Shown: in pieces, positions 3,298 through 48,893 of the stretch
Layout: every line of letters begins with the position of its first letter
Numbering within the stretch: position 1 is the first letter of the stretch
Position numbers and translations under genes: made by a program
The notes under the pieces: generated by a model
Seen by the model: the letters and a program-made list of their open reading frames with translations, nothing else
Database searches by the model: none
Told to the model about the DNA's origin: nothing
Virus record (IMG/VR): IMGVR_UViG_3300021373_000005
Origin: a virus
DNA length: 64,000 nucleotides
Direction: 5' to 3' (one strand)

Positions 3298-3358
3298 CAT
3301 AATAAATAAAGGTATACATTGAACAATTTAAACCGCCTATCTGGGGAGAGTGAACCGA

Positions 3359-6300: not shown

Positions 6301-9300
6301 AGGAAACGGTCAAAGATATATTCATTTCTATCATGATGGAACAGACGGTGGTTCTATTCGTGGTGATAGTTCAGGTAACTTATATCAAGTATTAAAGTCA
6401 GGAACCAATTGGGGATTCTGGACATCAGGATTTAGTGAAGCATTAATTGTTGATGATAGTGGTAATGTAATGGTTGCTTCCGGTACTTCACCTACTTATA
6501 CAGACGGTGGTGATAATACGGCTCTTACCACAACTCCTTCGACACCTAAACTACATGTTGGCGGTTCAATTTATCTAAATGGAAATAACGACGGTATTAT
6601 CTTTGGTCGTGGTACAGCATCCTTCCTGAAAGACGAAGAACTTGCCTTTGGTTGGGGTGGCGGTTGGTATATGCAAGATGGCACATACCTAAGAGTCAGA
6701 AATAATAAAACAATTTATTCTACAGGTGATGCTCACCTTAACAGATATTATGCATATCAGAATACAGCTTATTACCTTGACCCAGATGGTGACTCACAAT
6801 TAAATACAGTTGACATTGATGATTACATTCGTCATCGTGGTGATACAAATACTTTAATTGGTTTCTCAGGTAATGATACATTACTTTTCCAAACAAATGG
6901 TGTTAATCGTTTACAAATTAATAACGGTGCATTTAGGTCAAGAAATAATACAGTACAATTCTACTCAAGTGGAATTGAAATACAAAAACAAAGTAATGGC
7001 GGTGGTGTAGGACTTACAGTATCAGACCAAAACAGTGGAGAGCAACCAGGATTAAGTGGATTACAGCAAGGTTCTATTACATTCTGGCATGCTGATGGAG
7101 CTGTCACAACAGGCTCTAATGCCGCTTGGTATTTTAATTCTTCCGAAGCAATTACTCATTACGTATTTGGAACAAACAGCGGAGCAGCTGGTGGTAATCT
7201 TGTCCCAGTCGTTAACAACTCTGGTAGTTTAGGTAATTCAAGTTATCGTTGGGGTTCAATATACGCAGGAACAGGTGATTTCTCAGGTAATGTAACTGGT
7301 AATAATGCTTACTTCTATCGTTACTATGATAGGAATGATTCCACATATTACGCTGACCCAGCAAGTACTTCTTATCAACAGTTTATGAATATTAATGTTG
7401 GTAACGAAAACACAGGCGGTGCAAACTCAAGTACTAACGGATTGATGATGAGAGGTAATTACAATAGTAATACCTGGGCTCATAAATTCCATAAGTTTGA
7501 CCACGGTGGCGGAGTACCGATTTACTTATCAGAAACAATTGGTACAGCTGCTTGGAATCCAGTACAAAGATGGGGAACATATACAGGAAATGGATTTAAG
7601 TCGCAAATATTTGGTACTCTAAAAGTTGATACAAATATTCATACACCAATATTGTATGATTCAGATAACTCTGGATATTATGTAGATCCTGCCGGATCAT
7701 CAAGAATGAATACAATTACTCTTGATGGCAATGCAGTTGTATTAAGAGAACCTACAGGAACATTTGGTTCACTTGCTATTGATGGCGGCGGAAGAAATGG
7801 TTGGGAAGGATTCTCAATCGGTGACCGCATGGTATTCATGCATGATAATGCAAATAGAGTAGGTGTTTACAATGATGTAGAAAATGAATGGATTTGGTAC
7901 GCAGATAGAAATGCTCAGATGCGATTAATGTATAATGGCGCTGAACAAGCAAGAACAGAAAACGGATACTTCCTAGCACCTAACCAAATGCGTGCACCTA
8001 TTTACTACGATTCAAATAATACAGGCTATTACGTAGATGGTAATAATACGTCAAGATTCAATGCAGTTCAAGCATTAAGATATTACTTTAACCACGCAAC
8101 TACATACTACGCTGATGCAGCATCAGGTGATTATGGTTCAATGGAAGTTGGTGGTCAAAAGAATGGTTGGGCTGGTTATTCTATCGCAGGTCAATGGGTC
8201 TTAATGTCTCCAGGTGTTGACCGTGTTGGTATATACAATGATACTGATAACAAATGGCAGCAGCAGTGGTATAGAAACGCTGGTACATTGATGTACTATA
8301 ATGCTGTAGTCCAGGCAGAAACAAGAAGCGGTTACTTCCTCGCAAATAACCAAATGCGAGCACCAATCTATTATGATTCAAATGATTCAACATATTACTT
8401 AAACCCAGCAGCAGGTAATACAAACCGTGCATTAATGATTAACGGTAGAATATACCGTCAAGGTTTTGCTGGTGGTGATGGAAATAATAACAAACTATTA
8501 GAAACTCAAGACTATTCACATTGGATTTGGAACACTGCTACTGATTGGGGTATTTTCTGGGCAGGTAATGATAATCCATATCGTTCACACTTCAGTACAT
8601 CTAATCCTAATGAAATTGTATTCATAGGTAATGGAAACTTAAGAGCAAGTATTGACCTTGATAATGGTAATGCTCACTTTGTTGGTACTGTATCTGCTGG
8701 TAGTTTTGCACTTAATGGTGGAAATGAAAATATTGAAATTATTAAGTCATACGGTTCAGGTGGAGCTGACTTAGTACTATTTGATGGAACAGAATATTTT
8801 GATAAGCGTGTCATTAAAGCAATGGCACCTAACGAAAGTCCACTTACTACAACTACTTCAGAATATGTAAGAACAACAGACGGTCCTTTCGCAGGTTCTT
8901 ATGTATTACAAACATCTTCTTATAGAACATTCTATTCAGATTACATTCCTGTTGCTCCTGGTGAAGAATTATACGGTGAAATTTCTGTTAAGCGTATTTC
9001 AGGTTCAGGCGGTTTGGTTTATTATGGTATTGAAAGATTTGATAGTCAGAAGAGACCTATTGCTGGAAACACAGGTACAACATACTTCGTTGTAGGTGGA
9101 GCAAACTATACAGGTACATCTTGGAATACATATAGAAACCATACAACAATTCCAACATCTCATACTCCATATAATGGGTCTGACGGCGGAGGTGTTTATT
9201 ATGTAAGAATTCGTATCTTAATGAACTACAACTCTGGTGGTGCTTTAAGACAGTTTGCCGGAATCATGCTCAAACGTCGTAATGCTGAATCTAATTTATT

Positions 9301-12300
9301 AGTTGATGATTTACAAGTACTTGATGATGTGACAATCGGCGGAGATGCAACCATAACAGGTGACTTAACTGTCGATGATATTACGGCTGACGTTATTGAT
9401 GCAAGAAGATTTAGAGATAGAGATAATACTGGATATTATATCGACCCTAAAGATGGAAGTAATGTTGTAGGATCTTGGAACTGGAATAACGGTTCAATTG
9501 AAAATCTAAACAACCTTTCATTCAATGACCCAGGCCCTCAAGAAGGTATTCGTTGGAAAGGTGGTAATGAATGGAAGATTTATGAATCACCAGATAACTT
9601 AAGTTCTAACTCAGGCGGTAATTTACAATTCACATCAGGTAATGGCGCAGGTACTTATCAGATGAGATTGAATACGAGCGGTCGAATGGACGTTCGTGGG
9701 CAAATCAGAACACCTATTGTATATGACTTAAACGATACAGCCTGGTATGTAGATCCTCACTCAGGTTCAAGGTTCAAAGATTTAGAAATACAAGATACAA
9801 GAAGTTCAGATATCTTAACAGTATATAGAACAGGTTCAGCGCCAGGAAACTATACTGCAGCAAGGACAATTAACCAATACGGTAATCACTCTTGGGGTAT
9901 TGTTCATGAATTCAGAATTGGTGATAGGAGCTCACAAAGTGTACCTAGTGGTACTGACCGACCTTCTATTTTATTCTCAACTGGATATAATACAACAACT
10001 TGGTCAGTTGGTTTCGGTTATGTAGATAACGATTTTAGAATCAAACAAAATCACGGTCATATAAATCAATCTTGGGGTACTGAGAGATTTAGAATTAATA
10101 CAAGCGGTGAAGTATTCATTGGAAATAGCTTATGGGGTGCTAACGCATACTTCAACCGTTATTATGACAGAAACAATACTGGATATTATGCTGACCCAGC
10201 AAGTACATCTGTATTTAACGCAATGGTATTTAATGGCGACGTTGATTTCAACGGTGGTGCTAATGCGATTAATATTACAAGTTCTGATATTCGTTCAGAC
10301 GGTAATTCAACTTGGACAGGAAACCCAGGTGCAGGTGTAGGTAAGATTCAAATGCACTCTAACCGTTGGTACATTGTATCTAACGGAAACTCAAATAGAA
10401 TTGTTCAGTTTAGACAAAATGGTTCTGATAGGTCTTATATTGCGAATGATGGTAGATTAATCGGTGTTGGTGGTACAGCTTCTCAGGATTTCAGAGCTCC
10501 AATCTTCTACGATACAAATGATACTAGTTATTATGCAAACCCAGCAAGTGATTCAAGATTTAGTACATTAACACTTCGTGGTAATAGATTAGGATTTGTT
10601 AATACAGCGTTTGATGCAGAGATACGAGTAACTGATAATAACCCAGACGGTACAGGTGCAACATTTGTATTCTGGGGTGACCAAGTAGAATATAATGCTG
10701 AAGTAGCAACCGAAGTATTCAGAGCAACACGACATATGCGTGCTCCTGTATATTATGATTTAAATAATGCTTCATACTACGGTGACTTTGGTGGTACATC
10801 TTACATGAACGATGTAAGAGCTAATATTGTTTACGATAGAAACAACACTGCTTACTATGTACATAATTCGAGCGGTGATGCTCGAATGAGAAATGTTAGA
10901 ACAAATAACATTCAAGTTGAAAACGGCGCAACAATCACATCTGTAAATAATAATGGTAGAATTTATCTTGGTGGTAATTTACATATTGATGCTCAAAATG
11001 GTTTAGACATTTATATGAACTATTACTCGGGTAGAAGGTTCAGATCTTTCTCACCTGGTCAATACGAATCATTCAGAGTTGATACTGACCGTATTACATA
11101 CGCATTTGCTCAATTCAGAACTCCATTAATTTACGATTATAATAATACTGGTTACTATCTTGATATGAATAACAACTCAAGGTTTAACGACCTTATGTTG
11201 AGAGGATTATACGTAACCACGCGTTATCATTCAGGTTCTGACTTTGTTAATGGTACTCTTGTAAGAACAAGTATTCCTGCGACCGCAACTAACGGAGCTT
11301 CATTCGTACTTGAAGCAACAGGTAAATCTTATTCAGGTGATCCACCGTTTATGTTTACCGCACAAGGTTACTTATATGCTAATACTATTATTAATCATTC
11401 TGGTCAACATATTGGTAAGGCCGGATTTAGTACAATGCGTATATTTGAAAACGGTGGAGTATTATGTTTCTGGTGGCCTCGCGTATCTTATTGGAACTCC
11501 TTCTCTGTTCATGTAAGAAATGCAAACGGTGATGATAGAAACTTAGTCACAAGCGTTTCAAATTCATCTTTACCAGGATACTCGAAAGGTGTGACAACAA
11601 CAATGCGTACTACCGCAATGTACAATGTTAACATTGGTACAGGTGATATGTATGCACAACGTTACTACGATAGCAACAATACATTCTATTACGGAGACTT
11701 TGCCTCTAGTTCTAGGATGAACGAAGTAAACATTTACGGAAGTTTAAGAAATCAAGGTGGAACTCCGCATTACTTCTATACAGGTGCTGGAAACTTAAGA
11801 GGTTATATACGAGCCACAGATTCTAATGATTCTCACTTTGAATTTGCTACATCAGGTGGAGAGGACTTCATCTTCCGTGATGGTGGATTTGGAGGTTCTT
11901 GGAATCAGATTATTAGAGGTAATGGTCATGTATTAGTAGCATCAAGATTTGATACTCCTATTATGTATGATAGGAATAATACAGGTTATTATTCTGACCC
12001 AGCAAGTACTTCGCGTTTCAACACAATGCGAACAAACAGAATTTATCCTGCTTATGATAACGCAGGAGATATGTATTTAGATTGGCCTTCAGGTAATTAC
12101 GGTTCAATCCAAACAAACGGTGGCGGTAAAGGCGGCTGGGAAGGTTATTCAATCAATGGTCGTTATGTATTCATGTCGTCAAATAACAACGAATGTGGTA
12201 TTTACAACGACATTGATAATGAATGGATGACAATCTGGCGTCGTAACGGCAGAACTGAAATATTCCATAACGGTACTTGGGAAGAATACGCTCAGCCCGG

Positions 12301-14449
12301 TTATATGCAGGCTCGTGGTTCTTACCGTGCTCCAGTCTTCTATGATTCAAATGATACTGGATATTATTACGATCCTAACAGTACAAGTAATGCGGCAGGA
12401 AGACAAAGAGGTGGTACATTATACGGACCTAACACATCTTGGGGTAGATATCTCGCAGTTGGTACTAATGGTCGATATAGTAACGAAGCTTCGGTTGCTG
12501 CTACAAATGGTAACTTACACCTTGACGCAAGGTCAGGATTTGGAACATATATTAACTGGTATGTAGGTGGTACTACTTACATTAACGGTACACTGCAAGT
12601 TAACTTTATTTACGATAGAGATAATAATTCATATTACTGGAATGGCGCAAGCACATCTCATATGAATGACCTTCGTGTCAATATTCTATATGATCGTAAT
12701 GATACTGCTTATTACTTTGGTTCAAGCTCAGGTGATGCAAGAGCAAGAACAATGCGTGCTTGGAACTTCTACGCTGATGATTGGTTCCGAAACTATAACT
12801 CAGGTGAAGGTTTGTATAACCAAGCAACAGCGATGCATTGGTATTCAGATTCATCTTCAAGATTTAGATTGTATTCTACATCAAGTACTTCACAAATCTT
12901 ATTTACAACTTCAGGTAATAACGCTCGTGGTTATGCATATGCTGATAACAGTAATAATATCGGTTTCCTCAATGCAGGCGGTGGTTGGGCATTAAGAACA
13001 AACTACGGTACGACTGAAGTATACGGTAATGCATATGCAAATGATATGCGTGCTTATATATTCTATGACCGTGCAAATACAGGTTATTTCTGTGACCCAG
13101 CAGGAAGAAGTAGATTATCAAGTATTGACTACGGTAATGGTTCTTATTACTTCAGAAGTGGTTCTTGGGGATGGAGACATCAGACTCCTTCAGGATATAT
13201 TGAATTTGGACCTGCTAACGGTTCACACGCTCATATCTATACTGATAGGTCTAACTTCTATTATAATGTTAATGATTCATATCTTAACGGTAGAAGAATA
13301 TTACACGAAAATCGTTGGATAAGTAATAAGTACTTCAGTAGTGATGGTACAATTTATGGAACCATCTTTAGAGATGCAAACAACGGTGGTTATTACGGAG
13401 ACTTTGCGTCAACATCAAGATTCAATCAAATGGAAATGATTGGGCGAATGGTTGTTGGTGGTAGATTTGATTATAATGCATATAACTCAACATCATCAAC
13501 AAGATTACATTTCGGTGGTGGTAATAGTGATGCAAATGGTAATTATTACATAGGTACAAACAGAGAGAACTATAACGGTAACTATAATAAACTTGATTTA
13601 AGGTGGCATACAGGTATTCGTATAGGTGCTCAACAAGTTTATGGTGGTGTCAGATTCTATAATAATGAAGACCTAAGTTCACTCAGAGTTCATATTGAAG
13701 CAGGTTCTGGTTATACAAGATTAAATACTTGGACTGAAATCGGCGGTGGCGGTGTAGGTATCTACGATGGATATAACGGCGCGCATTGGTTCCCAAATAA
13801 CCAAACATCTTATGGTTCATGGGCTTCATACGGAAACAGAAGTGGATGGTATGGTACTGCTTATCCTCAAGCAGGATACGATCCACATGACATGTGGGAT
13901 GGTTCAGGTAATGGTGGTTGGTACTTACAAGGTCTAGGACGTTGGGTACTTTATCATAACCGTAGTAGAAACTGTATGGGTGTTGCTTCATCAAGTACTG
14001 TGTCCGGTTATCGTATGAGAGTTAACGGTTCACTTTACTGTAATGGTAACGTGGTTGCTTACTCTGACCGTCGTAATAAAGAAAATATCATCACAATTGA
14101 TAATGCTCTTGATAAAGTATTACAATTGCGTGGTGTTTATTATAACAGAAAACAATCAAAAATTGATGACCGTGACGATCTTTACAAAGGACGTCAATTA
14201 GGTATGATTGCTCAGGAAGTTCAAGAAATTGTTCCTGAGGTTGTATCTTATGCTGAAGAAATTGACCAATACGGACTTGATTATCCGAAGATGGTTGGTT
14301 TACTTGTTGAAGGTATTAAGGACCAACATGCAATTGTAGAGAGTCAAAAAGAAACAATAAATAATATGCAGAAAGATATTGACATGTTGAAAGAAATGGT
14401 ATATAATATGCAATCAATAATGGAGAATAGTAAGAATGGCACTAATTAA
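3359..14449 (+). CDS. Giant (~3,696 aa) long tail fibre/adhesin with C-terminal peptidase S74 intramolecular chaperone
   Basis: ATG 3359 follows GGGGAGAG. Many YYxDPxSTS-type repeats. C-terminus AY|SDRRNKENIITIDNALDKVLQLRGVYY...GMIAQEV...LDYPKMVGLLVEGIK (Ser codon at 14063) followed by a coiled coil is the S74 signature. Confidence 0.85.
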   Translation: MANDKKFIVKNGLLTPENAVIGSNTDTGEKLQVTGDTVLTQGTQGTPTLKVTNSGGASASTIVAQFEGDSDSLQIRNIGTGDYSITNPQQGNSIEFYDGTAGIVIKYAGSNKLAFTSTGTDFTGLSNTTIEGNRILTTADEGAGNGLDADTVDGLQASQFLRSDVDDTAAGNINFSQDIDVAGSAQVDVNLTVDGQAVIKALLDAQANAQVAGNLTVSGDLLVSGNTTTVNTEEILLADNIITLNSNYTGSTPSEDSGIEIERGTLANPKLVWNESQDYWELQVNGSVLGRIITTADEGSGNGFDADTVDGLEAEQFLRSDADDTATGNITIEGDLTIGDDSGPAQIIFDGNGVNRTLYSATGEIGFLNNAANWAARSNANGDWIVERDVSAGRDVIATNDVTATSGDVTAGDSITAQNNITATTGNIAASAGSVTAQTNVTAVTGNVSATAGDVTAGDDVIAQNDVTATTGDVSATAGNVTAGDSMTAQNDITATTGDITASAGDVQATVGNVRAGEDVYGKKFIDVNDGTYIVNPNSSSTMHEIGIDDNLFHNGDTDTRLRFETDNIQLRTGGSDRLDINNSRVQSNLDIYAPNVRINDSLIHNGDTDTKITFATDTVDIDTGGSTRLTANNSGVTIEGDLDVNGDITAVNGTFTGDLAASRFLDADNNNYYADPNSTSVMNRIGIDDYIQHNGDTNTYFGFNANDNIQFFTDATQRVEINGTNFTSTVDGIFPNLYAGRYYDLNNATYYLDPASNSRLNGIALVGTIYHDGDTDTYLNFNGANSFEVVTGNAQRLLVNNTYVLANNQMRSPIYYDNNNTNYYGNFASTSQMSQIDIDSYIRHRGDTNTYLGFDANDSITFVTGGAERVNITDANTTFFQPVIVQGDIQADRFVDRQNTGYYLNPADTSIAATLNGRVLIGNVTDSARWDDNSGNGGISLMPHGSYAGTQNTTVGISGNVSGGYSLMYLNLIDSSSNPTGNGQRYIHFYHDGTDGGSIRGDSSGNLYQVLKSGTNWGFWTSGFSEALIVDDSGNVMVASGTSPTYTDGGDNTALTTTPSTPKLHVGGSIYLNGNNDGIIFGRGTASFLKDEELAFGWGGGWYMQDGTYLRVRNNKTIYSTGDAHLNRYYAYQNTAYYLDPDGDSQLNTVDIDDYIRHRGDTNTLIGFSGNDTLLFQTNGVNRLQINNGAFRSRNNTVQFYSSGIEIQKQSNGGGVGLTVSDQNSGEQPGLSGLQQGSITFWHADGAVTTGSNAAWYFNSSEAITHYVFGTNSGAAGGNLVPVVNNSGSLGNSSYRWGSIYAGTGDFSGNVTGNNAYFYRYYDRNDSTYYADPASTSYQQFMNINVGNENTGGANSSTNGLMMRGNYNSNTWAHKFHKFDHGGGVPIYLSETIGTAAWNPVQRWGTYTGNGFKSQIFGTLKVDTNIHTPILYDSDNSGYYVDPAGSSRMNTITLDGNAVVLREPTGTFGSLAIDGGGRNGWEGFSIGDRMVFMHDNANRVGVYNDVENEWIWYADRNAQMRLMYNGAEQARTENGYFLAPNQMRAPIYYDSNNTGYYVDGNNTSRFNAVQALRYYFNHATTYYADAASGDYGSMEVGGQKNGWAGYSIAGQWVLMSPGVDRVGIYNDTDNKWQQQWYRNAGTLMYYNAVVQAETRSGYFLANNQMRAPIYYDSNDSTYYLNPAAGNTNRALMINGRIYRQGFAGGDGNNNKLLETQDYSHWIWNTATDWGIFWAGNDNPYRSHFSTSNPNEIVFIGNGNLRASIDLDNGNAHFVGTVSAGSFALNGGNENIEIIKSYGSGGADLVLFDGTEYFDKRVIKAMAPNESPLTTTTSEYVRTTDGPFAGSYVLQTSSYRTFYSDYIPVAPGEELYGEISVKRISGSGGLVYYGIERFDSQKRPIAGNTGTTYFVVGGANYTGTSWNTYRNHTTIPTSHTPYNGSDGGGVYYVRIRILMNYNSGGALRQFAGIMLKRRNAESNLLVDDLQVLDDVTIGGDATITGDLTVDDITADVIDARRFRDRDNTGYYIDPKDGSNVVGSWNWNNGSIENLNNLSFNDPGPQEGIRWKGGNEWKIYESPDNLSSNSGGNLQFTSGNGAGTYQMRLNTSGRMDVRGQIRTPIVYDLNDTAWYVDPHSGSRFKDLEIQDTRSSDILTVYRTGSAPGNYTAARTINQYGNHSWGIVHEFRIGDRSSQSVPSGTDRPSILFSTGYNTTTWSVGFGYVDNDFRIKQNHGHINQSWGTERFRINTSGEVFIGNSLWGANAYFNRYYDRNNTGYYADPASTSVFNAMVFNGDVDFNGGANAINITSSDIRSDGNSTWTGNPGAGVGKIQMHSNRWYIVSNGNSNRIVQFRQNGSDRSYIANDGRLIGVGGTASQDFRAPIFYDTNDTSYYANPASDSRFSTLTLRGNRLGFVNTAFDAEIRVTDNNPDGTGATFVFWGDQVEYNAEVATEVFRATRHMRAPVYYDLNNASYYGDFGGTSYMNDVRANIVYDRNNTAYYVHNSSGDARMRNVRTNNIQVENGATITSVNNNGRIYLGGNLHIDAQNGLDIYMNYYSGRRFRSFSPGQYESFRVDTDRITYAFAQFRTPLIYDYNNTGYYLDMNNNSRFNDLMLRGLYVTTRYHSGSDFVNGTLVRTSIPATATNGASFVLEATGKSYSGDPPFMFTAQGYLYANTIINHSGQHIGKAGFSTMRIFENGGVLCFWWPRVSYWNSFSVHVRNANGDDRNLVTSVSNSSLPGYSKGVTTTMRTTAMYNVNIGTGDMYAQRYYDSNNTFYYGDFASSSRMNEVNIYGSLRNQGGTPHYFYTGAGNLRGYIRATDSNDSHFEFATSGGEDFIFRDGGFGGSWNQIIRGNGHVLVASRFDTPIMYDRNNTGYYSDPASTSRFNTMRTNRIYPAYDNAGDMYLDWPSGNYGSIQTNGGGKGGWEGYSINGRYVFMSSNNNECGIYNDIDNEWMTIWRRNGRTEIFHNGTWEEYAQPGYMQARGSYRAPVFYDSNDTGYYYDPNSTSNAAGRQRGGTLYGPNTSWGRYLAVGTNGRYSNEASVAATNGNLHLDARSGFGTYINWYVGGTTYINGTLQVNFIYDRDNNSYYWNGASTSHMNDLRVNILYDRNDTAYYFGSSSGDARARTMRAWNFYADDWFRNYNSGEGLYNQATAMHWYSDSSSRFRLYSTSSTSQILFTTSGNNARGYAYADNSNNIGFLNAGGGWALRTNYGTTEVYGNAYANDMRAYIFYDRANTGYFCDPAGRSRLSSIDYGNGSYYFRSGSWGWRHQTPSGYIEFGPANGSHAHIYTDRSNFYYNVNDSYLNGRRILHENRWISNKYFSSDGTIYGTIFRDANNGGYYGDFASTSRFNQMEMIGRMVVGGRFDYNAYNSTSSTRLHFGGGNSDANGNYYIGTNRENYNGNYNKLDLRWHTGIRIGAQQVYGGVRFYNNEDLSSLRVHIEAGSGYTRLNTWTEIGGGGVGIYDGYNGAHWFPNNQTSYGSWASYGNRSGWYGTAYPQAGYDPHDMWDGSGNGGWYLQGLGRWVLYHNRSRNCMGVASSSTVSGYRMRVNGSLYCNGNVVAYSDRRNKENIITIDNALDKVLQLRGVYYNRKQSKIDDRDDLYKGRQLGMIAQEVQEIVPEVVSYAEEIDQYGLDYPKMVGLLVEGIKDQHAIVESQKETINNMQKDIDMLKEMVYNMQSIMENSKNGTN

Positions 14450-37539: not shown

Positions 37540-37614
37540 TGGTAGCCCGTAGGAGAATCGAACTCCTGTTGCATGGATGAAAACCATGTGTCCTAACCAC
37601 TAGACGAACGGGCC
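37540..37614 (-). tRNA. tRNA-Glu(UUC)
   Basis: GGCCCGT/ACGGGCT acceptor stem, CATGG-TTTTCAT-CCATG anticodon arm, GTTCGATTC T-loop, encoded CCA. Confidence 0.95.
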
Positions 37615-40304: not shown

Positions 40305-40391
40305 TGGTACCGCGAGTCGGACTTGAACCGACAAGGCCGTTAAGCCGAGGGATTTTAAGTCCCTTGTGTTTACCAATTTCACCACCGCGGC
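40305..40391 (-). tRNA. tRNA-Leu(UAA)
   Basis: GCCGCGG acceptor 5' strand, AGGGA-CTTAAAA-TCCCT anticodon arm, long variable arm, GGTTCAAGTCC T-arm, encoded CCA; 87 nt. Confidence 0.95.
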
Positions 40392-41126: not shown

Positions 41127-41213
41127 CATAGTATATTGTATCATATGCCAGAGTTTGGGCCTTTAGAAGTGCCAATTTAAGCTTTATGGTTTCGTATTGG
41201 TATGTTCATTGTG

Positions 41214-41221
41214 TATAAATA
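41214..41221 (+). promoter_or_regulatory. T4-type late promoter TATAAATA heading the csg-FecR-cyclase island
   Basis: Exact consensus 5 nt upstream of ATG 41227. Confidence 0.7.
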
Positions 41222-41226
41222 ACGGT

Positions 41227-41523
41227 ATGGAAGAAATATTTCAACTAATATCTGACGTTGGTTTACCTATTGCTGGCGCTCTTACAATGGGATTTTTTAT
41301 ATTCATTATTATTAAGCAAATCTTTGAAGGAATTATTGATAACATTGGTACACTAACAATGTTTGCCGAATCATTAGAGAACCGAGCAAGAACAATGTCA
41401 AATGAAATGGTCAAGATTGACCTTCTTGTTTCGAGTGCCTTAGGGTTAAACCCGGATATTGAAAGAGTGGCTCGTGCTGAAAATTTTGTTGAAGACGGAA
41501 AAGTTGACGTAAGAAGAGATTAA
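41227..41523 (+). CDS. Single-pass membrane protein with coiled coil (holin-like/YvrJ-like candidate)
   Basis: MEEIFQLISDVGLPIAGALTMGFFIFIII followed by an amphipathic helix; ATG 41227 preferred over the track start at 41197. Confidence 0.6.
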   Translation: MEEIFQLISDVGLPIAGALTMGFFIFIIIKQIFEGIIDNIGTLTMFAESLENRARTMSNEMVKIDLLVSSALGLNPDIERVARAENFVEDGKVDVRRD

Positions 41524-41527
41524 AATA

Positions 41528-41800
41528 ATGGACATTGCGAATTTAGTTAATGAGTACGGCTTTCCTGCTGTGATGGTGGTAGGACTTGGGTACTTTGTAT
41601 ATTTTGTTTGGAGGTTTGTAAACGACAAGCTTCAGCCGGAAATTGATAAGCAACACATGGCTTTGATTAGGTTGATTGATAGAATGAGAATGCTTGACCA
41701 GGATCTTATAAGATTACAACAAAAGGTTGATGTTGTTCTCAAGTATAAAGAAATAGAAGAATTGAAGAAAAAAGGTGATAAAGATGGACAACAAGACTGA
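41528..41800 (+). CDS. Single-pass membrane protein with coiled coil, probable paralog of the previous ORF
   Basis: LVNEYGFPAVMVVGLGYFVYFVW resembles the YvrJ-type GFP-TM pattern; coiled-coil tail. Confidence 0.6.
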   Translation: MDIANLVNEYGFPAVMVVGLGYFVYFVWRFVNDKLQPEIDKQHMALIRLIDRMRMLDQDLIRLQQKVDVVLKYKEIEELKKKGDKDGQQD

Positions 41801-42302
41801 TAAAGGTTTATTGTACTTAGGATGGTTTATTGTAATAATGTATCTGTTTTTAGCAGCAGGTAAAGCATACGGAGAACCTATCGTACACAAATTTAAAAAT
41901 CCAAGTTTCAGCGGTGTTGGAACTGGTGCTCATTATCTCACTATCGAGAATCAAGAACATTCACGTAAGAAAGCAATCAAAGATGCTCTTGAAGCTGCAG
42001 AAAGAGCTGCACAAAGAGAATTAGATAATTCTACTCTATCAAAGTTTATTCGTAACTTGGAAAGTAGAATTTATGCTCAGTTAGCAAAACAGTTAGTAGA
42101 CAATATGTTCTCTAACGATGATGCAGTAAGATTTGGATCTTTTACATTGGAAGGTTCAGTCGTAACATATGAAGTCATTACAAATGCAGACGGTACAGAA
42201 TTTATTAAGATGACAATCGTTGATGAGAATGGAACAACAACAGTAATTGAAATCCCAGTAGGTACAGGAAACTTTGGAAGTGAGAATCCAGATGGCGGCT
42301 AA
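41784..42302 (+). CDS. csgF: Curli assembly component CsgF-like
   Basis: Signal peptide ending AYG, then EPIVHKFKNPSFSG (compare CsgF GTMTFQFRNPNFGG); LESRIYAQLAKQL; adjacent to csgG. Confidence 0.8.
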   Translation: MDNKTDKGLLYLGWFIVIMYLFLAAGKAYGEPIVHKFKNPSFSGVGTGAHYLTIENQEHSRKKAIKDALEAAERAAQRELDNSTLSKFIRNLESRIYAQLAKQLVDNMFSNDDAVRFGSFTLEGSVVTYEVITNADGTEFIKMTIVDENGTTTVIEIPVGTGNFGSENPDGG

Positions 42303-43254
42303 ATTATTATCTGCATTTCTGTCAACATTAATTTTAGCAAGTTGTGCACAAATGCCACAATGGTCGGAAGGACCTGCGAATTGTGAATACGGACAAGGAA
42401 GATTTGCACAAGGATTTAATACCGATTTTGATAATGATGGTATTATAAATGATGATGCTTTAAGTTTTGGAAAACAACTATATACCGGTACTCGTAAGTA
42501 TATTGAAACAAAACAGATTTGTATAGAACAACCTGAGGTTGTAAAGTTACCTGCATATATTGATTTACTGAATTTACCACCTGCAGAAAATATGCCTGTG
42601 GTTGCTGTTTACAATTTTATAGATAAAACAGGTCAAAGAAAGGATTCAGTTACAGGACAAAGTTTCTCCACTGCGGTAACACAAGGTGGAACAGAATTAT
42701 TAATAGACGCTCTGAAAACGGCAGGTGGTGGAACCTGGTTCAGAGTTGTAGAAAGACAAGGGATTGATGCTCTTGTTAGAGAAAGACAGATTATTCGTTC
42801 AGGCCGTGATGAAGCGGCAAAGAAACTGGGCGAAGAACCAAAAGGTGTCGGACCATTATTATTCGCAGGAATGATAATTGAAGGAGGCATCATTGGTTAT
42901 GATAGTAATGTAAAAACCGGAGGCCGCGGAGCTAGAACTTTAGGTATTAGCTTTAGCCGTCAGTATCGTCAAGATGTAGTCACAGTATCTGTGCGTGCAG
43001 TTTCGGTTCTTACAGGTGAGATATTATTAAATGTCCAAGCAAAGAAATCAATACTGAGTTACGGCTCAGGAGGAGACGTCTTCCGCTTTATAGAGCAAGG
43101 AACTCAATTGATTGAATACGAGGACGGACTTGGAAATAATGAGAGTGTGACATATGCGGTACGAACAGCAATTGAAGCTGCCGTGCTAGAGATGGTATAC
43201 CAGGGCGACCAACGTGGCTTCTGGACTATTAACAATAAAATAGAGGAAGAATAA
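42292..43254 (+). CDS. csgG: Curli secretion channel CsgG (outer-membrane lipoprotein)
   Basis: Lipobox LAS-C18; VAVYNFIDKTGQ, FSTAVTQG, WFRVVERQG...L.RERQIIR, EGGIIGYDSNVKTGG.GAR, TGEILL.V...K.ILS, VFRFI, NESV - all collinear with E. coli CsgG. Confidence 0.93.
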   Translation: MAAKLLSAFLSTLILASCAQMPQWSEGPANCEYGQGRFAQGFNTDFDNDGIINDDALSFGKQLYTGTRKYIETKQICIEQPEVVKLPAYIDLLNLPPAENMPVVAVYNFIDKTGQRKDSVTGQSFSTAVTQGGTELLIDALKTAGGGTWFRVVERQGIDALVRERQIIRSGRDEAAKKLGEEPKGVGPLLFAGMIIEGGIIGYDSNVKTGGRGARTLGISFSRQYRQDVVTVSVRAVSVLTGEILLNVQAKKSILSYGSGGDVFRFIEQGTQLIEYEDGLGNNESVTYAVRTAIEAAVLEMVYQGDQRGFWTINNKIEEE

Positions 43255-43988
43255 TGAAAAAAATATTAGGCCTATCTTTATTATGTTTATTCTCTTTCAA
43301 TAGTTTAGTGTTTGCGCAAGCAACTGATGACAATGAAATCAACATCGAACAGGATGGTGATACTCTTACTTTGTATATTGACCAATATGGTTATGGTAAC
43401 AAAATAGGATTGGATAATTTCAGTTCAAGCTCAAGTGCTATGCCTATTACTGGTTCATCGTTAACATTTAACATTGACCAAATAGGAAATGAAAACTTGT
43501 TCTTTGGTACTTATGTCGGTGACAGTACAACTGTTAACGCTTTATTTACTGGAGATTCTAACTCTTGGGATTGGAACGTAGGTTATATTGGTTCATCTGA
43601 TACTTCAACAATTGATGTTGATATTACTGGTGATTCAAATACTATGGACTTTGACCAAGGTTATAACGCAAGTGCTGAAAGATTAGATCTTGACTTAACA
43701 GTTATTGGAGACAGTAACATTTTTGATGTTGACATTGATGTCGACGACGCAATATGGAATATGGATATTACTGGTGGAAGTAATAATATTAATACATTAC
43801 AGAAGGACGGTGCTGAGCATGAAATTAACTTGACTCACGTTGGTTCATCTGCTGATATTGATATTAACCAAATCAGTGGTACTTGTCCTACAGGTGTTTC
43901 TACTTGTAATGGAATAATTACTTTGGACATAGATTCTGAAAATGCGACAATTCAAATTAATCAGAAAGACAGTTCAAACGACTCTTAA
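43254..43988 (+). CDS. Secreted curlin-like beta-repeat protein 1
   Basis: Signal peptide ending VFA; repeats NEINIEQDG, IDQYGYGN, IDQIGNEN, GDSN; C-terminal Cys pair. Confidence 0.65.
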   Translation: MKKILGLSLLCLFSFNSLVFAQATDDNEINIEQDGDTLTLYIDQYGYGNKIGLDNFSSSSSAMPITGSSLTFNIDQIGNENLFFGTYVGDSTTVNALFTGDSNSWDWNVGYIGSSDTSTIDVDITGDSNTMDFDQGYNASAERLDLDLTVIGDSNIFDVDIDVDDAIWNMDITGGSNNINTLQKDGAEHEINLTHVGSSADIDINQISGTCPTGVSTCNGIITLDIDSENATIQINQKDSSNDS

Positions 43989-45111
43989 TTTAATTCTGTG
44001 TTCGACACTGCTACTTACTTCGGGAGTGGCATTGTCGAGCTCGGATCCTATTGGAGCAATCGTTGAACATAAAGGTTCAGCTTCTTTAATTAGAGAAGCA
44101 GGTGAAGAGCTTGTTGTTTCTGGTGCATTTGTTCCAGAAGTTGAAATGAACGACACGGCCGAAACTGAGAATGGCCGAATGCTTATTCAGTTCCTTGATA
44201 AAGCAGAACTCAGTTTAACAGAAAACACAAAGGTATACATAGACAAAGTATACTACGACCCAGATCCAAGTAAATCAAAAATGACAATGCGTATGGCATT
44301 AGGCACAGCTCGATTTGCGTCTGGTCGTTTAGGAATGGTCAATAAGAATAACATTGACATTTCAACACCCACGGCAACGGTATCAGTTCGTGGAACAGAT
44401 TTCACAACAACCATTGATGAGTTAGGAAGATCACTTGTAATACTTTTGCCTGACCAATATGGTAATCCTTCAGGTATTATTGACGTAACAAACAACGGTG
44501 GGACAATAAGATTAGAGGAAGCCTACGCTGCCACAATGGTAAGTAGTCTCGATACTCCACCTACAAGACAAATCACAATGCAAGGTATTACACCTTCTAT
44601 GATTGATAATATGTTTATTGTATCACCACCTCCTGAAGTAAAGGAAGCTATTGAGGAGGAAATACAAGATGATGCAAACCAAGACCAAGGATTACTTGAT
44701 ATAGATTTCTTAGAGTTTGATGGATTGGATATTGATTATCTTGAAGATGATGCATTAGAATTTTCAGAGCTTGACATTGATTATCTTGATGTTGATTTTT
44801 TAACAGACTTATTGGATGTAGTTGAAGAACTTGTAAAGACAACCGTTAAACTTGACGATAGTGCAATCGCAGGTTCTTCATTAGGGGCAGAGTTGCGTGG
44901 AGCAACTTTTGGATTAAATGCAGATTCACAATATAACATTTTTGAACAAAGTGGAAGGATTGTATTTTATAGAGATGTAAATGGTGTTATTAATATTTCT
45001 TTAGCATCTGATGCATCCGTAAAGATTGACACTTCAGTTGACGGATACGAAGGAATTATTGACCTCAACCAAGGACAAAATTCTATTATTATAATTAGAC
45101 AAGGAGGATAA
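43942..45111 (+). CDS. Periplasmic FecR-domain protein with acidic C-terminal region
   Basis: Signal peptide; ETENGRMLIQFLDKAELSLTENTKVYID...GTARF...TPTATVSVRGTDF is the FecR pattern. Confidence 0.8.
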   Translation: MRQFKLIRKTVQTTLNLILCSTLLLTSGVALSSSDPIGAIVEHKGSASLIREAGEELVVSGAFVPEVEMNDTAETENGRMLIQFLDKAELSLTENTKVYIDKVYYDPDPSKSKMTMRMALGTARFASGRLGMVNKNNIDISTPTATVSVRGTDFTTTIDELGRSLVILLPDQYGNPSGIIDVTNNGGTIRLEEAYAATMVSSLDTPPTRQITMQGITPSMIDNMFIVSPPPEVKEAIEEEIQDDANQDQGLLDIDFLEFDGLDIDYLEDDALEFSELDIDYLDVDFLTDLLDVVEELVKTTVKLDDSAIAGSSLGAELRGATFGLNADSQYNIFEQSGRIVFYRDVNGVINISLASDASVKIDTSVDGYEGIIDLNQGQNSIIIIRQGG

Positions 45112-45119
45112 ATAATATT

Positions 45120-45905
45120 ATGAAAGACGAAAATGAAAAAAGAGCGTGGGAGATGTTTCGTAAATCAATCGGCCCACACATTTGGACTAGTAATGATTTA
45201 TTCGTATTCTTTGGCGCAGGATTGTTATTTGGTATTCTAATGACCTTGCCATTAGTTGCTTTAGCAGATAATGTAATAACAATAGAACAAACTGGTGATA
45301 ATTTAAATTTAGAGATTCAGCAATACGGTGCTGATAACGAAATTAAAATGTTGGACCAATATTCGTATATTAATGCATCGTCACTTGATTTATTAGTTGT
45401 TCAATATAATACCACAGGTCTTGATAACACAATAGTATTTGATGAAATCAGTGGAACAGGTAATGAAATTAAATTAGGTCAAGGTGTTGCTTTTGATAAC
45501 ACCACACAAGGTTGGAACTATGATGGTGCCGAAGGCGGTGGTCATTATATGGAAATAGATTTATATGGTAATGATAACTTTGTTGAATGGCATCAAACAA
45601 ATCAAAGTGATGCAACTGACGGACATGATTTTAACTTACATGTTGCTGGGTCCGATAATTGGATAGATGGAAGACAACAATCTTCAGGTGCAAAAGAAGC
45701 AAACATTACACTTTACAATTCAGACAATACTTTAACATTCAGACAAAAAGGTGCCAACGCAAACCATACAGCAAATATTACTTTAGACGGTATTTACGGA
45801 ACGGATGCGCTTATCAGACAAAATAGCACAACCAATCAAACATATAACTTATCAGTGGATTGTTATACAGTTGGTGGTTGCTCAGTAAGTGTGTTACAAG
45901 AATAA
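45120..45905 (+). CDS. Secreted curlin-like beta-repeat protein 2
   Basis: Hydrophobic leader ending ALA; repeats NVITIEQTG, IQQYGADN, LYGNDN..WHQ, VAGSDN...RQ, RQKG; C-terminal Cys pair. Confidence 0.65.
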   Translation: MKDENEKRAWEMFRKSIGPHIWTSNDLFVFFGAGLLFGILMTLPLVALADNVITIEQTGDNLNLEIQQYGADNEIKMLDQYSYINASSLDLLVVQYNTTGLDNTIVFDEISGTGNEIKLGQGVAFDNTTQGWNYDGAEGGGHYMEIDLYGNDNFVEWHQTNQSDATDGHDFNLHVAGSDNWIDGRQQSSGAKEANITLYNSDNTLTFRQKGANANHTANITLDGIYGTDALIRQNSTTNQTYNLSVDCYTVGGCSVSVLQE

Positions 45906-46213
45906 TGGAATTAGATATTTACGGAAACCCAGTAGGAACAGTATATCGAGAAGATGTATGTCCGCCTGAATTAGTTTGTGTTCCAAGAGAAACTTTAGAT
46001 GAAATGTTATACGGTGTCGATATGGAATATGTCGAAGAAACTGGAACAATCCAACCAATGGGTGACGCCGAAGCAATTATTGATTTCACAACAGATTTAT
46101 TATTTTTAGATATTTGGACTATCTTAAACATGGCAGTCCCTCTTACTATATTTGCTGTTTATGGTTTGACATTATATGCAGCAGTAAAGTATATTCAAAA
46201 GAAGTTTAGTTAA
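45905..46213 (+). CDS. Small protein with C-terminal membrane segment
   Basis: ATG 45905 overlaps the upstream TAA; abuts the cyclase gene. Confidence 0.6.
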   Translation: MELDIYGNPVGTVYREDVCPPELVCVPRETLDEMLYGVDMEYVEETGTIQPMGDAEAIIDFTTDLLFLDIWTILNMAVPLTIFAVYGLTLYAAVKYIQKKFS

Positions 46214-48253
46214 ATGAAAATATTAACCAAGTGGTGGACAGTCCTTTTGACCATCACAGGATTTGCCTGCCTACATATAGCAAATCCAGATTTTATACAG
46301 AGCATAGAGTATTCTTATTATGACTCCTTACAGCAAGCGAAAGAAGTTGAAGCAATTGAAGACATTGTCCTCGTCAACATCGATGAAACAGCAATCGCTG
46401 CCGAAGGTCAGTATCCGTGGCCTCGTGGTTCTGTTGCTGATTATATACGGAACGGTCCTGACGATAGCTTATATGTCCTTAATGTAATATACTCTGAAGA
46501 AGACAGATTCAAAGAAGATCATCTACTCGCGGAAGCAATGGCTGAAAAGGCGGTTGTTCTTGCGTCCGCTCCTTCACAACAAAAATCAGGTGGAGTCGGT
46601 ACCTTTGTAGGTGTTGCCACCTTTGGAGAACAAAATGAAAATTGGTTATACGAATTTCCTGGACTATTGTACCCTGTGGAATCTCTTTCTTCTTGGGCTT
46701 TTGGTGTTGGCGCCACTGTTGCTGTTCCTGACGCACCAACCGGAGTCGTGCGTAGAGCACCACTCGTGGTCAAAGCAGCCGGGAATGCCTACCCATCTCT
46801 CGCACTCGATACATTACGAGTGTACACCGGTGAACCAAGTTACCAAATGAAAGTAGGCTCCAATGGAGTCGAATGGATTCGTATGGGTCGTCAAGATCCT
46901 ATCACAACAAATAGTTTCGCTGAATTACCTATTGCTTTTTGGAATCAATTTGAAACACAATCTATAACAGAACCACTACCAAGTGGAAAGGTATTAATAT
47001 TTGGTGTAACTGCAGAAGGTGTTTCTAATCCAGTTTCAACCCCAACGGGTGCAATGTATCCCCACGAAGTTCAAGCTCACCTAATTCAGACCGTCCTTTC
47101 AGGAGTTGAAATACAGATTCCCGACTGGAAGCCAATAGCCGAGCTCGGTCTTCTGGTCTTACTGAGTCTAGGTATCCTTGGAGCGGTCTATATCTTGCCC
47201 ACAACTCTTGCGGTGATAATGAGTTTAATTCTGATTGGCGCCTCTTATGCATTAAGCCGTTATCTGTGGAATGATTTAATCTTTTTAGATGCGACCTTAA
47301 GTTCATTTGCTTCCTTAGTAGTTTTTGCTCAATCAAGTTTCAACAAATACTATTTAACATTTTTAGAAAAGCGCGCAATAATGAAACAATTTGCTGGTTA
47401 TTGTTCGCCTGAAGTGGTTACTATTTTACAACAAAATCCTTCACTTGTCAAGGATGGAATGAAAAAAGATGTAAGTATTGTCTTTTCGGATCTTCGAGGA
47501 TTTACTCCTTTGGGTGAAAGCTTTGGAGATGACGTTAAAGGACTGACTACATTGATGAATGGTTATATGGATGCTATTACACAACCTGTTCTAGATGCAA
47601 ATGGAATGATTATCAAATACATTGGTGACGCAAGTATGCATATACATAATGCTCCGATGGAAGATGATGACCACGCAAAGACGGCAGTAATGACAGGTAT
47701 TAATATGTTACGAGCAGTGGATAAATTTAATGATAAGATTACAAAAGAGGGAAGACCTCCGATTGGTATGGGGGCTGGTATTAATAGTGGTTTGGGTTAT
47801 GTTGGTGAGATGGGTTCTACAAGTCGACATAGTTATGACATCCTTGGAGATGCTGTTTCAACGGCTGCACGAATTGAGTCTAAATGTAAAGAATACGGAT
47901 GTTTACTTTTATTAGGAGAAGAAACAGTTAGGAGATGTAATCCTGAAGAATTCCTTTTCTTAAAAGTAGATGATCTTGCGGTCAAAGGTAAATCAGTTGG
48001 TGTTGGAATATATACAGTTCTAGATTTACAAAAAGATAAATACAATAAACCAGCAGAGATGCACAAAGCAATGCATTCAAATTATCAAAAGCAAAACTTT
48101 GATAAGGCGATAAAAATATGTAATGACCTCATGGATTGCTTTGAAGGACAAATGCAAGGTTATTATAAAATGTGGATTGAGCGTTGTGAGTATATGAAAA
48201 CGCAAGATCTTCCGAAGGACTGGAATGGAGTTTTCATCGCGACCACTAAGTAG
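46214..48253 (+). CDS. CHASE2-domain class III adenylate/guanylate cyclase
   Basis: N-terminal TM; CHASE2 motifs (IVLVNIDE, GQYPWPRG, DGxxR-like TGVVRR, SLAL, FGVTAEG, G.MYPHEVQA); three TMs; catalytic FSDLRGFT (D426), KYIGD (K468, D472), YDILGDAVSTAARIES (D542, R553). Confidence 0.92.
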   Translation: MKILTKWWTVLLTITGFACLHIANPDFIQSIEYSYYDSLQQAKEVEAIEDIVLVNIDETAIAAEGQYPWPRGSVADYIRNGPDDSLYVLNVIYSEEDRFKEDHLLAEAMAEKAVVLASAPSQQKSGGVGTFVGVATFGEQNENWLYEFPGLLYPVESLSSWAFGVGATVAVPDAPTGVVRRAPLVVKAAGNAYPSLALDTLRVYTGEPSYQMKVGSNGVEWIRMGRQDPITTNSFAELPIAFWNQFETQSITEPLPSGKVLIFGVTAEGVSNPVSTPTGAMYPHEVQAHLIQTVLSGVEIQIPDWKPIAELGLLVLLSLGILGAVYILPTTLAVIMSLILIGASYALSRYLWNDLIFLDATLSSFASLVVFAQSSFNKYYLTFLEKRAIMKQFAGYCSPEVVTILQQNPSLVKDGMKKDVSIVFSDLRGFTPLGESFGDDVKGLTTLMNGYMDAITQPVLDANGMIIKYIGDASMHIHNAPMEDDDHAKTAVMTGINMLRAVDKFNDKITKEGRPPIGMGAGINSGLGYVGEMGSTSRHSYDILGDAVSTAARIESKCKEYGCLLLLGEETVRRCNPEEFLFLKVDDLAVKGKSVGVGIYTVLDLQKDKYNKPAEMHKAMHSNYQKQNFDKAIKICNDLMDCFEGQMQGYYKMWIERCEYMKTQDLPKDWNGVFIATTK

Positions 48254-48854
48254 TTTATTACTAGGATTTCTTTTATTAGCAGTCCCGGTCTCAGCCTTTG
48301 TTCCAAAGGACCCATTTATTTCTGAAATCTCAGAAGCACGAAAAGAACTTATCAAAATGGGGCATGCAGCTCCTTACAATCAATTAACAGTTAAGAGAGT
48401 CGTAGTTGGTAAAGCAAGAGTAATGCCAAATGGTGCTATTGTTAATCTACCACACGGTCCTGATATGGTTCCCTCTTTTTACGCCTTACAACACGACCCA
48501 AAATGGCAAGTAAAAGAAGAACATAAATACTCAATAGACCACTGGACCGAAAATGAAAAACAAATCATAGATATACTTTTTTGGTCTGCTCAAGTACTTG
48601 ATGTCTATTCAACTTATCGTGGATTAAAATATGATTGTATAACCGAAGCAAATCCATTACTACCAGAAGTACCTGAGATACATGAAATGGTAGGAATAAA
48701 ACTTTTTGTTATTGGTGGACTTGGCGCTTTGTCATCTGGTGATGAAAATTTTTGGTATGGATGGAAACTTGGCGCAGGTTTAACAACAACTGCAGTTACA
48801 TTAAATAACTTTAGGCTTTTAAGAAAAGCTGAAGGTCGTTGTAATAGACGTTAA
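48225..48854 (+). CDS. Secreted/membrane hypothetical protein ending the island
   Basis: Signal peptide ending VSA; C-terminal D..ST.RGL...EANPLL and hydrophobic helices. Confidence 0.6.
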   Translation: MEFSSRPLSSLLLGFLLLAVPVSAFVPKDPFISEISEARKELIKMGHAAPYNQLTVKRVVVGKARVMPNGAIVNLPHGPDMVPSFYALQHDPKWQVKEEHKYSIDHWTENEKQIIDILFWSAQVLDVYSTYRGLKYDCITEANPLLPEVPEIHEMVGIKLFVIGGLGALSSGDENFWYGWKLGAGLTTTAVTLNNFRLLRKAEGRCNRR

Positions 48855-48855
48855 G

Positions 48856-48881
48856 AAAAGGACCCATTACTGAGTCCTTTT
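48856..48881. terminator. Probable bidirectional terminator between convergent units
   Basis: AAAAGGAC-CCATTACTGA-GTCCTTTT with A and T runs on both sides. Confidence 0.7.
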
Positions 48882-48893
48882 AGTTTTGTTGTC

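Follow-up and report, generated by a model that had tools for sequence, protein, structure and literature searches.

Why should a phage carry, in one operon, genes for a curli-type secretion pore together with a periplasmic FecR-domain protein and a membrane-bound nucleotide cyclase? The question is raised by a stretch of 64,000 nucleotides of viral DNA (IMG/VR record IMGVR_UViG_3300021373_000005), referred to here in its full length as the window. Within it, ten co-oriented + strand open reading frames (ORFs), abutting or overlapping one another, fill positions 41197-48854 (ORF calls and Pfam) and form a cassette of ~7.6 kb. An earlier description made from the letters of the window (the original prediction) had proposed this island with its gene order and domains. 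These were borne out by the ORF calls and Pfam, as was the absence of CsgE, CsgC and CsgD, no such domain being found in the operon with Pfam. Judged by gene content and order, the operon is a further copy, here in an uncultured phage, of a cassette already published for marine pelagiphage-type phages, which combines curli (type VIII secretion) genes with FecR and an adenylate cyclase. By analogy with bacterial loci, its FecR and CHASE2-cyclase half is a copy of a bacterial gene pair, with the curli pore standing in the place of an outer-membrane barrel. As to function, we favour, tentatively and with slightly less than even confidence, an envelope-spanning device in which the curli pore would replace the barrel of a bacterial FecR-CHASE2-cyclase pathway and which would deliver a cyclic-nucleotide output late in infection.

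The cassette has been described before. Wittmers et al. (2022; PMC9599517) reported a block of 'HK', CsgF, CsgG, CsgA/B, FecR, CsgA/B and adenylate cyclase (AC) genes in podo- and myoviruses, presented trees for CsgG, CsgF, FecR and AC, and detected the genes in metatranscriptomes as well as at each of the 65 GOV2.0 stations. Only the csgGF part was discussed by Zaragoza-Solas et al. (2020; PMC7029224) and by Buchholz et al. (2022; PMC9004378). The GenBank annotation of Methylophilales phage Melnitz lists CsgF, CsgG, a curlin repeat, a FecR domain, a further curlin repeat and an adenylate/guanylate cyclase, and Pelagibacter phage HTVC008M has the same gene order, its cyclase also being annotated in GenBank. 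The FecR-cyclase arm is thus not new in a phage, although the original prediction was not aware of its having been characterised in one. The CHASE2 domain and the late promoter are not named in the published accounts of the cassette (PMC9599517, PMC7029224).

Melnitz and HTVC008M resemble the window in carrying two small membrane proteins, CsgF, CsgG, a curlin-like protein, FecR, a curlin-like protein and the cyclase in that order, the window proteins being 27-48% identical to those of Melnitz and 33-52% identical to those of HTVC008M. The clade of the window differs from both in having a tail-anchored gene before the cyclase and a DUF5658 gene after it. The location also differs: the cassette of the window follows the structural module and tRNA genes, whereas in Melnitz and HTVC008M it lies between replication and baseplate genes. 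Finally, an Asp/Ser variant of the cyclase active site is found in the window and in Melnitz but not in HTVC008M. The window adds to the published picture one more member of the family and this active-site variant, and it helps to clarify the origin of the FecR-cyclase half. The features of the cassette are listed in Table 1.

Table 1 Features of the curli-FecR-cyclase cassette in window coordinates, with the evidence for each assignment
Feature	Position	Strand	Evidence
Late-promoter motif TATAAATA (T4-type)	41214-41221	+	Exact match, 5 nt before the TM1 ATG
TM1, 98 amino acids (aa)	41227-41523	+	phrog_18771 4.4e-23; one N-terminal transmembrane (TM) segment (hydropathy), charged helical tail
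TM2, 90 aa, paralogue of TM1	41528-41800	+	phrog_18771 3.1e-26; one N-terminal TM segment
CsgF homologue with signal sequence	41775-42302	+	Pfam CsgF 1.2e-16, 61.5 bits (cut-off 25.8), profile positions 6-132 of 132
CsgG outer-membrane lipoprotein pore	42274-43254	+	Pfam CsgG 5.8e-52, 176.5 bits (cut-off 20.8); lipobox LASC
Curlin-like 1, secreted, predicted beta-solenoid	43254-43988	+	Curlin_rpt 6.8e-4, 20.0 bits (below cut-off, 20.7)
Exported FecR-domain protein	43942-45111	+	Pfam FecR 1.8e-9, 38.3 bits (cut-off 24)
Curlin-like 2, long N-terminal signal/anchor	45120-45905	+	Curlin_rpt 0.016, 15.5 bits (below cut-off, 20.7)
Small tail-anchored protein, 102 aa	45905-46213	+	C-terminal TM segment (hydropathy)
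CHASE2 sensor and class III nucleotide cyclase, 679 aa	46214-48253	+	Pfam CHASE2 2.4e-29, Guanylate_cyc 1.1e-16
DUF5658 membrane protein, final operon gene	48225-48854	+	Pfam 1.8e-5, 25.8 bits (cut-off 25.2)
Hairpin, candidate bidirectional terminator	48856-48882	both	A-run/T-run on either side; junction of the + strand operon with - strand genes

The signalling genes and the pore genes travel together. With the cyclase as query, 19 IMG/VR viral loci and two isolates were recovered, and the full gene order was kept wherever the DNA was present. With CsgG as query, at least 578 viral contigs were matched; the best 80, with 60-98% identity in CsgG, were retained, and the result holds for that clade. 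Counting only loci with enough flanking DNA, we found CsgF in 77/77, curlin-like 1 in 70/70, FecR in 60/60, curlin-like 2 in 52/53 and the cyclase in 42/42. The co-conservation of FecR and cyclase with csgG, which the original prediction had put forward for checking by synteny, is therefore strict for both genes in this set. According to the literature, the cyclase is sometimes absent from podovirus cassettes.

The origin of the FecR-cyclase half becomes clearer when bacteria are considered. We used a sample of 251 alphaproteobacterial genomes, 110 of which contain CHASE2 and 45 CsgG. A FecR match lies within 5 kb of CHASE2 in 11 of the 31 genomes that have a single CHASE2 match, where 0.24 would be expected (Poisson P 3e-15). 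In five loci (L038, L040, L041, L042 and L044) a FecR gene is found directly upstream of a CHASE2 cyclase that can be aligned to the phage cyclase along its entire length (27-28% identity, E 1e-65 to 1e-76). All five have a TPR protein gene immediately before FecR, and in four of them its product includes a recognisable outer-membrane barrel (SlipAM in three and OMP_b-brl in one). Comparable arrangements have been published: a Campylobacterota cluster in which a CHASE2 cyclase and a phosphodiesterase accompany a TPR protein and a FecR 'outer membrane protein' (PMC9239204); a Burkholderia LysM-FecR protein encoded beside a CHASE2 histidine kinase (PMC5192318); and, in S. meliloti, a FecR gene among the Clr targets and next to cyaD1 (PMC5498481). 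CHASE2 cyclases of S. meliloti depend on the outer-membrane barrel NsrA for sensing their signal, a plant protein (PMC13001267).

The bacterial module resembles that of the window in that an exported FecR-domain protein is encoded near a CHASE2 cyclase, with an outer-membrane component encoded upstream. It differs in that this component is a TPR/Slam-like barrel rather than CsgG/CsgF, in the lack of curlin-like genes, in the presence of the catalytic Asn and in the length of most of its FecR proteins, which at 465-934 aa are much longer. No TPR or SlipAM domain was found in the window operon with Pfam; CsgF and CsgG occupy that position. Two side observations concern the same bacterial loci. 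In L038 (10014-13835) and L042 (9718-14049), genes for a small GAF-domain protein and a CitMHS/TrkA_C transporter precede the barrel-FecR-cyclase genes, all on one strand. In a very small alphaproteobacterial genome of 1.2 Mb (G108; L037:6499-10919), the partner fused to CHASE2 is a SpoIIE/PP2C phosphatase, and a FecR-domain gene comes second after it, behind a gene of unknown function, which implies that the FecR-CHASE2 pairing is not limited to cyclase outputs.

The FecR-domain protein of the window consists of a FecR/PupR-type fold (residues ~33-222), an acidic repeat linker and a beta-rich C-terminus without an assigned fold. Residues 33-222 are modelled with a pLDDT (predicted local distance difference test) of ~80. 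In PupR, the periplasmic FecR-fold domain contacts the outer-membrane transducer. A Foldseek search with the model placed the PupR signalling domain (6ovk) and a Parabacteroides anti-sigma factor (4m0h) at the top, with a probability of 1.0, a TM-score of 0.5 and a root-mean-square deviation (rmsd) of 3 Å. What the protein shares with FecR/PupR anti-sigma factors is this periplasmic fold. It differs from them in that only a signal peptide precedes the FecR domain, no cytoplasmic anti-sigma domain being found with Pfam, and the Pfam scan of the operon revealed no gene for an extracytoplasmic function (ECF) sigma factor or a TonB-dependent transducer. The published label of iron regulator finds no support on these grounds. 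We rejected the idea that the C-terminus is a curlin-like strand which joins the fibres, profile comparison with the curlin-like 1 alignment giving a probability of 0.6%. Because FecR and CHASE2 are paired in bacteria, and because the anti-sigma domain, sigma factor and transducer are all missing, the protein is best read, by analogy, as the periplasmic partner of a CHASE2 receptor and not as an iron regulator.

The time at which these genes are expressed also bears on their function. The original prediction had the operon open with a T4 late promoter, and an exact match to the motif does stand just before TM1. The window as a whole contains eight copies of TATAAATA against 8.8 expected by chance, that is, no excess. 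Seven of the eight, the operon copy included, closely precede the start of an ORF of the same orientation. In 17 of 21 related loci the motif lies within 60 nt upstream of the TM1 start, at varying distances. We regard its position and its recurrence in relatives as good evidence of late transcription; the operon is most likely transcribed late and as a single unit.

Taken together, we picture the device as follows. CsgG would form a lipoprotein pore in the outer membrane of the infected cell, capped by CsgF, and the two curlin-type beta-solenoid proteins would be exported through it. In the periplasm, the FecR-fold protein would monitor the state of the pore, or that of the fibres it exports, and would pass the signal to the periplasmic CHASE2 domain of the inner-membrane cyclase. 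CHASE2 would in turn control the cytoplasmic class III domain and so set the synthesis of cyclic AMP (cAMP) late in infection. The analysis establishes the genes present and their order, the folds, the late-promoter motif and the strict co-conservation, whereas the physical coupling of these parts, the direction of signalling, cAMP as the product and all downstream effects are what we infer; the proposed route from pore or fibre through FecR to the cyclase gains indirect support from the FecR-CHASE2 linkage in bacteria, the PupR/FecR fold of the model and the strict co-conservation. Since the cyclase and the pore genes have a late promoter in common, the cyclase cannot switch the pore genes on, and it is more likely to be the output of the device than a regulator of their transcription.

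A number of points weigh against a device of this kind. Outside the FecR fold, the linker and C-terminal part of the FecR protein are modelled with a pLDDT <50. In the phages, the FecR and cyclase genes are one or two genes apart, and relatives have unrelated insertions between them (in the window, curlin-like 2 and the small tail-anchored gene intervene; FecR lies upstream, as in the bacterial pair). The transition-state Asn of the cyclase is replaced by S549, a substitution conserved in the window/Melnitz clade, and loss of this Asn lowers the activity of mammalian cyclases. In Melnitz, HTVC008M and two large related IMG/VR contigs no gene for a cyclic nucleotide monophosphate (cNMP)-binding protein was found, so that any receptor would have to be the host's. 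In addition, tblastn revealed neither FecR nor the cyclase within 10 kb of CsgG in the five best alphaproteobacterial loci, from which it follows that the link between pore and sensor is phage-specific and has co-conservation as its sole basis. In the 251 genomes, no CsgG was found <17 kb from CHASE2 among the matches listed (150 of the 252 CHASE2 matches). For a bacterial cluster of CsgG, FecR and CHASE2, a scan of bacterial genome contigs with the FecR alignment returned only seven contigs from metagenome-assembled genomes (MAGs), all of them carrying the full phage cassette.

The strongest competitor starts from the curli genes themselves. Compared with the curli system of E. coli (csgBAC-csgDEFG), the operon has a CsgG that covers nearly the whole mature protein, a CsgF that covers the full profile, and predicted beta-solenoids with some resemblance to curlin repeats. 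It departs from that system in having no CsgE, CsgC or CsgD, weak repeat matches, two of the three constriction residues changed and an extra N-terminal segment in CsgG. CsgG aligns with the E. coli CsgG structures (4uv3/6si7) over residues 17-245 (2e-46), with the barrel-forming segment conserved. At the constriction, Phe is retained and the E. coli Tyr and Asn are both replaced by Ser. The additional segment, of ~75 aa (residues ~26-100, 42349-42570), separates the lipobox Cys from the CsgG core. It includes two Cys as well as an acidic motif of the DxDxDG-like kind, and is poorly conserved in relatives except for the Cys. CsgF gave no match in a sequence search against solved CsgF chains. 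Near its mature N-terminus it carries the motif F-x-N-P-x-F, which we take to be that of E. coli CsgF.

The curlin-like subunits, of 244-261 aa, are less easily assigned. Although the repeat match of curlin-like 1 falls below the cut-off, Curlin_rpt was found in all 12 of its homologues at E<=0.01 (best 2.7e-5), and mean column identity is 86%. An AlphaFold2 model shows a 13-strand all-beta solenoid (pLDDT 76). Foldseek found nothing for this model in the PDB at E<=0.001, only weak beta-helix rows. Among the 48,161 chains of VIA, the best structural match is Pontibacter CsgA (8c50; Z 17.4, 18% identity, high rmsd), a score barely above that of unrelated SufD-type beta-helices (Z 16). The likeness between the two curlin-like proteins is confined to the mature N-terminus (56% identity over 36 aa), which could, judged by its sequence, be a targeting or nucleation segment.

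It is possible on this evidence, if on balance doubtful, that the fibre comes first: a curli-type amyloid would coat the infected cell, serving to aggregate sibling hosts, to shield against superinfection or to promote uptake, and FecR and the cyclase would have an accessory role, regulating secretion or the physiology of the host. PMC7029224 and PMC9599517 interpret the cassette in this way. In its favour, the operon has the full set of CsgG, CsgF and two curlin-like subunits, each of them conserved, and a likeness restricted to the mature N-terminus is what would be expected of a secretion or nucleation signal. However, the Melnitz authors saw no clumping in cytograms or by electron microscopy (PMC9004378), and the retention of the FecR-CHASE2 pair in every locus is left unexplained. 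A regulator under the same late promoter as its targets would, moreover, be unable to switch those targets on. A fibre and a sensor are in any case compatible with each other.

A second alternative concerns the cyclase. Its periplasmic CHASE2 domain spans residues 17-319 (103 bits) and is placed between an N-terminal TM segment and further TM segments at 311-329 and 354-372, and the protein matches solved cyclases down to 2e-21. The metal-binding Asp residues are D426 and D472, the Lys is K468 with Asp at D542, and the Arg is R553. The bacterial relatives, HTVC008M and the HTVC008M clade show the residues typical of class IIIb, namely Lys, Ser/Thr, Asn and Arg. Two coupled changes, Ser/Thr to Asp at the base-specifying position and transition-state Asn to Ser, distinguish the window, Melnitz, two related loci (L018 and L028) and the representative P0125. 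These changes are the reason for considering a weak enzyme or pseudo-enzyme, whose CHASE2 and membrane parts would act as scaffold or receptor, or else a product different from cAMP. We think this distinctly improbable. The two metal-binding Asp residues are retained, as are the Lys and the Arg, and class III cyclases usually specify adenine through Lys paired with Asp. The catalytic domain is also strongly conserved across the clade, where overall identity falls to 44-49%, and this conservation of the whole domain argues for a site that still works. The enzyme could nevertheless be slow, differently regulated or changed in product.

More improbable still is a role in the control of lysis, in which CsgG, with or without CsgF, would be a gated outer-membrane channel, TM1 and TM2 would act in the manner of a holin and antiholin, and the cyclase would time or delay lysis. 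A lysis role was proposed by Buchholz et al. (PMC9004378). The late operon opens with two paralogues of one TM segment each, found in related loci in 76/77 (TM1) and 77/77 (TM2) cases, and of the three E. coli constriction residues CsgG has kept one. In the Atlas, the neighbours of TM2 are viral hypothetical proteins throughout and the nearest named cluster is Holin_BhlA at 0.86, which is a lead only, as Atlas scores <0.9 are often due to chance. However, neither TM1 nor TM2 is homologous to any family of holins (Pfam, E<=1), TM1 having no Pfam match at all even at E<=1, and the two conserved curlin-like genes would be left unexplained. The label 'histidine kinase' given to TM1/TM2 in PMC9599517 is likewise not supported: the proteins have 90-98 aa and show no HisKA, HATPase_c or other kinase domain (Pfam, E<=1).

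The remaining genes of the operon are more variable. The tail-anchored protein, for which no family match was found (PHROG; Pfam E<=1), is present in only part of the related loci. The DUF5658 and cyclase genes share 29 nt. In most close relatives, too, DUF5658 comes after the cyclase, but this is not so in Melnitz or HTVC008M. In relatives, the junction between the small tail-anchored gene and the cyclase is an insertion hot spot (L008:6631-9005, L010:8064-9005, L016:755-2112), where a URO-D-like gene, a family 2 glycosyltransferase and a NifU-like gene have been inserted. In L008 the inserted gene that abuts the cyclase encodes a calcineurin-like metallophosphoesterase, which could act on cyclic nucleotides as a phosphodiesterase. 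At the end of the operon, the bidirectional terminator of the original prediction is plausible. The hairpin has T-runs on either side and folds at -14 kcal/mol (z -4.1) on the - strand, but at only -9.9 kcal/mol (z -1.8) on the + strand, so that a two-way terminator here would be weak for the operon and stronger for the opposing genes.

The surroundings of the cassette are those of a phage. The window carries tail sheath, portal and major head protein genes on the + strand, up to 36 kb, and its capsid protein is ~65% identical to the capsids of Sinorhizobium phages and Melnitz; judged by these genes, it is a T4-like myophage. The structural region opens with a single ORF of 3699 aa (3350-14449, +). 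Both flanks of the cassette are on the - strand, according to ORF orientation and the sign changes of the GC skew, and the - strand block just upstream includes tRNA-Glu(TTC) at 37540-37614 and tRNA-Leu(TAA) at 40305-40391. The seven MAG contigs mentioned above (L022-L028) are labelled Sphingobacteriales, Synechococcus, Planctomycetaceae, Saprospirales, Flavobacteriaceae, Rhodobacteraceae and unclassified bacterium. Because they carry the full cassette, including TM1/TM2, under unrelated taxon labels, they appear to be phage sequence misplaced in bacterial bins. Five contigs with CsgG occur in a single Rhodobacteraceae bin (G002). That the operon itself is host DNA misassembled into a phage contig, as a co-oriented island on the strand opposite to both flanks and the bacterial MAG labels of similar contigs might suggest, has a negligible probability, and the host chimera for which the original prediction had allowed is ruled out: the cassette lies inside two isolate phage genomes and dozens of independent viral contigs, 7/7 MAG contigs carry the phage-only TM1/TM2 under their diverse labels, and the cassette begins with a phage late-promoter motif.

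Returning to the envelope-spanning device, a more elaborate form of it, which we consider unlikely on present evidence, would be a rebuilt barrel/FecR/CHASE2 pathway in which pore and fibres act as a surface antenna. The Melnitz-type clade would then have a remodelled cyclase site, with an output that could differ in rate, regulation or product and could be used to time lysis or to sense other phages or neighbouring cells. If the cassette does act as a trans-envelope sensor with cAMP as its product, it would provide a rare example of a lytic phage that installs its own signal-perception pathway in its host, in a cassette carried by abundant phages of the most abundant marine bacteria.

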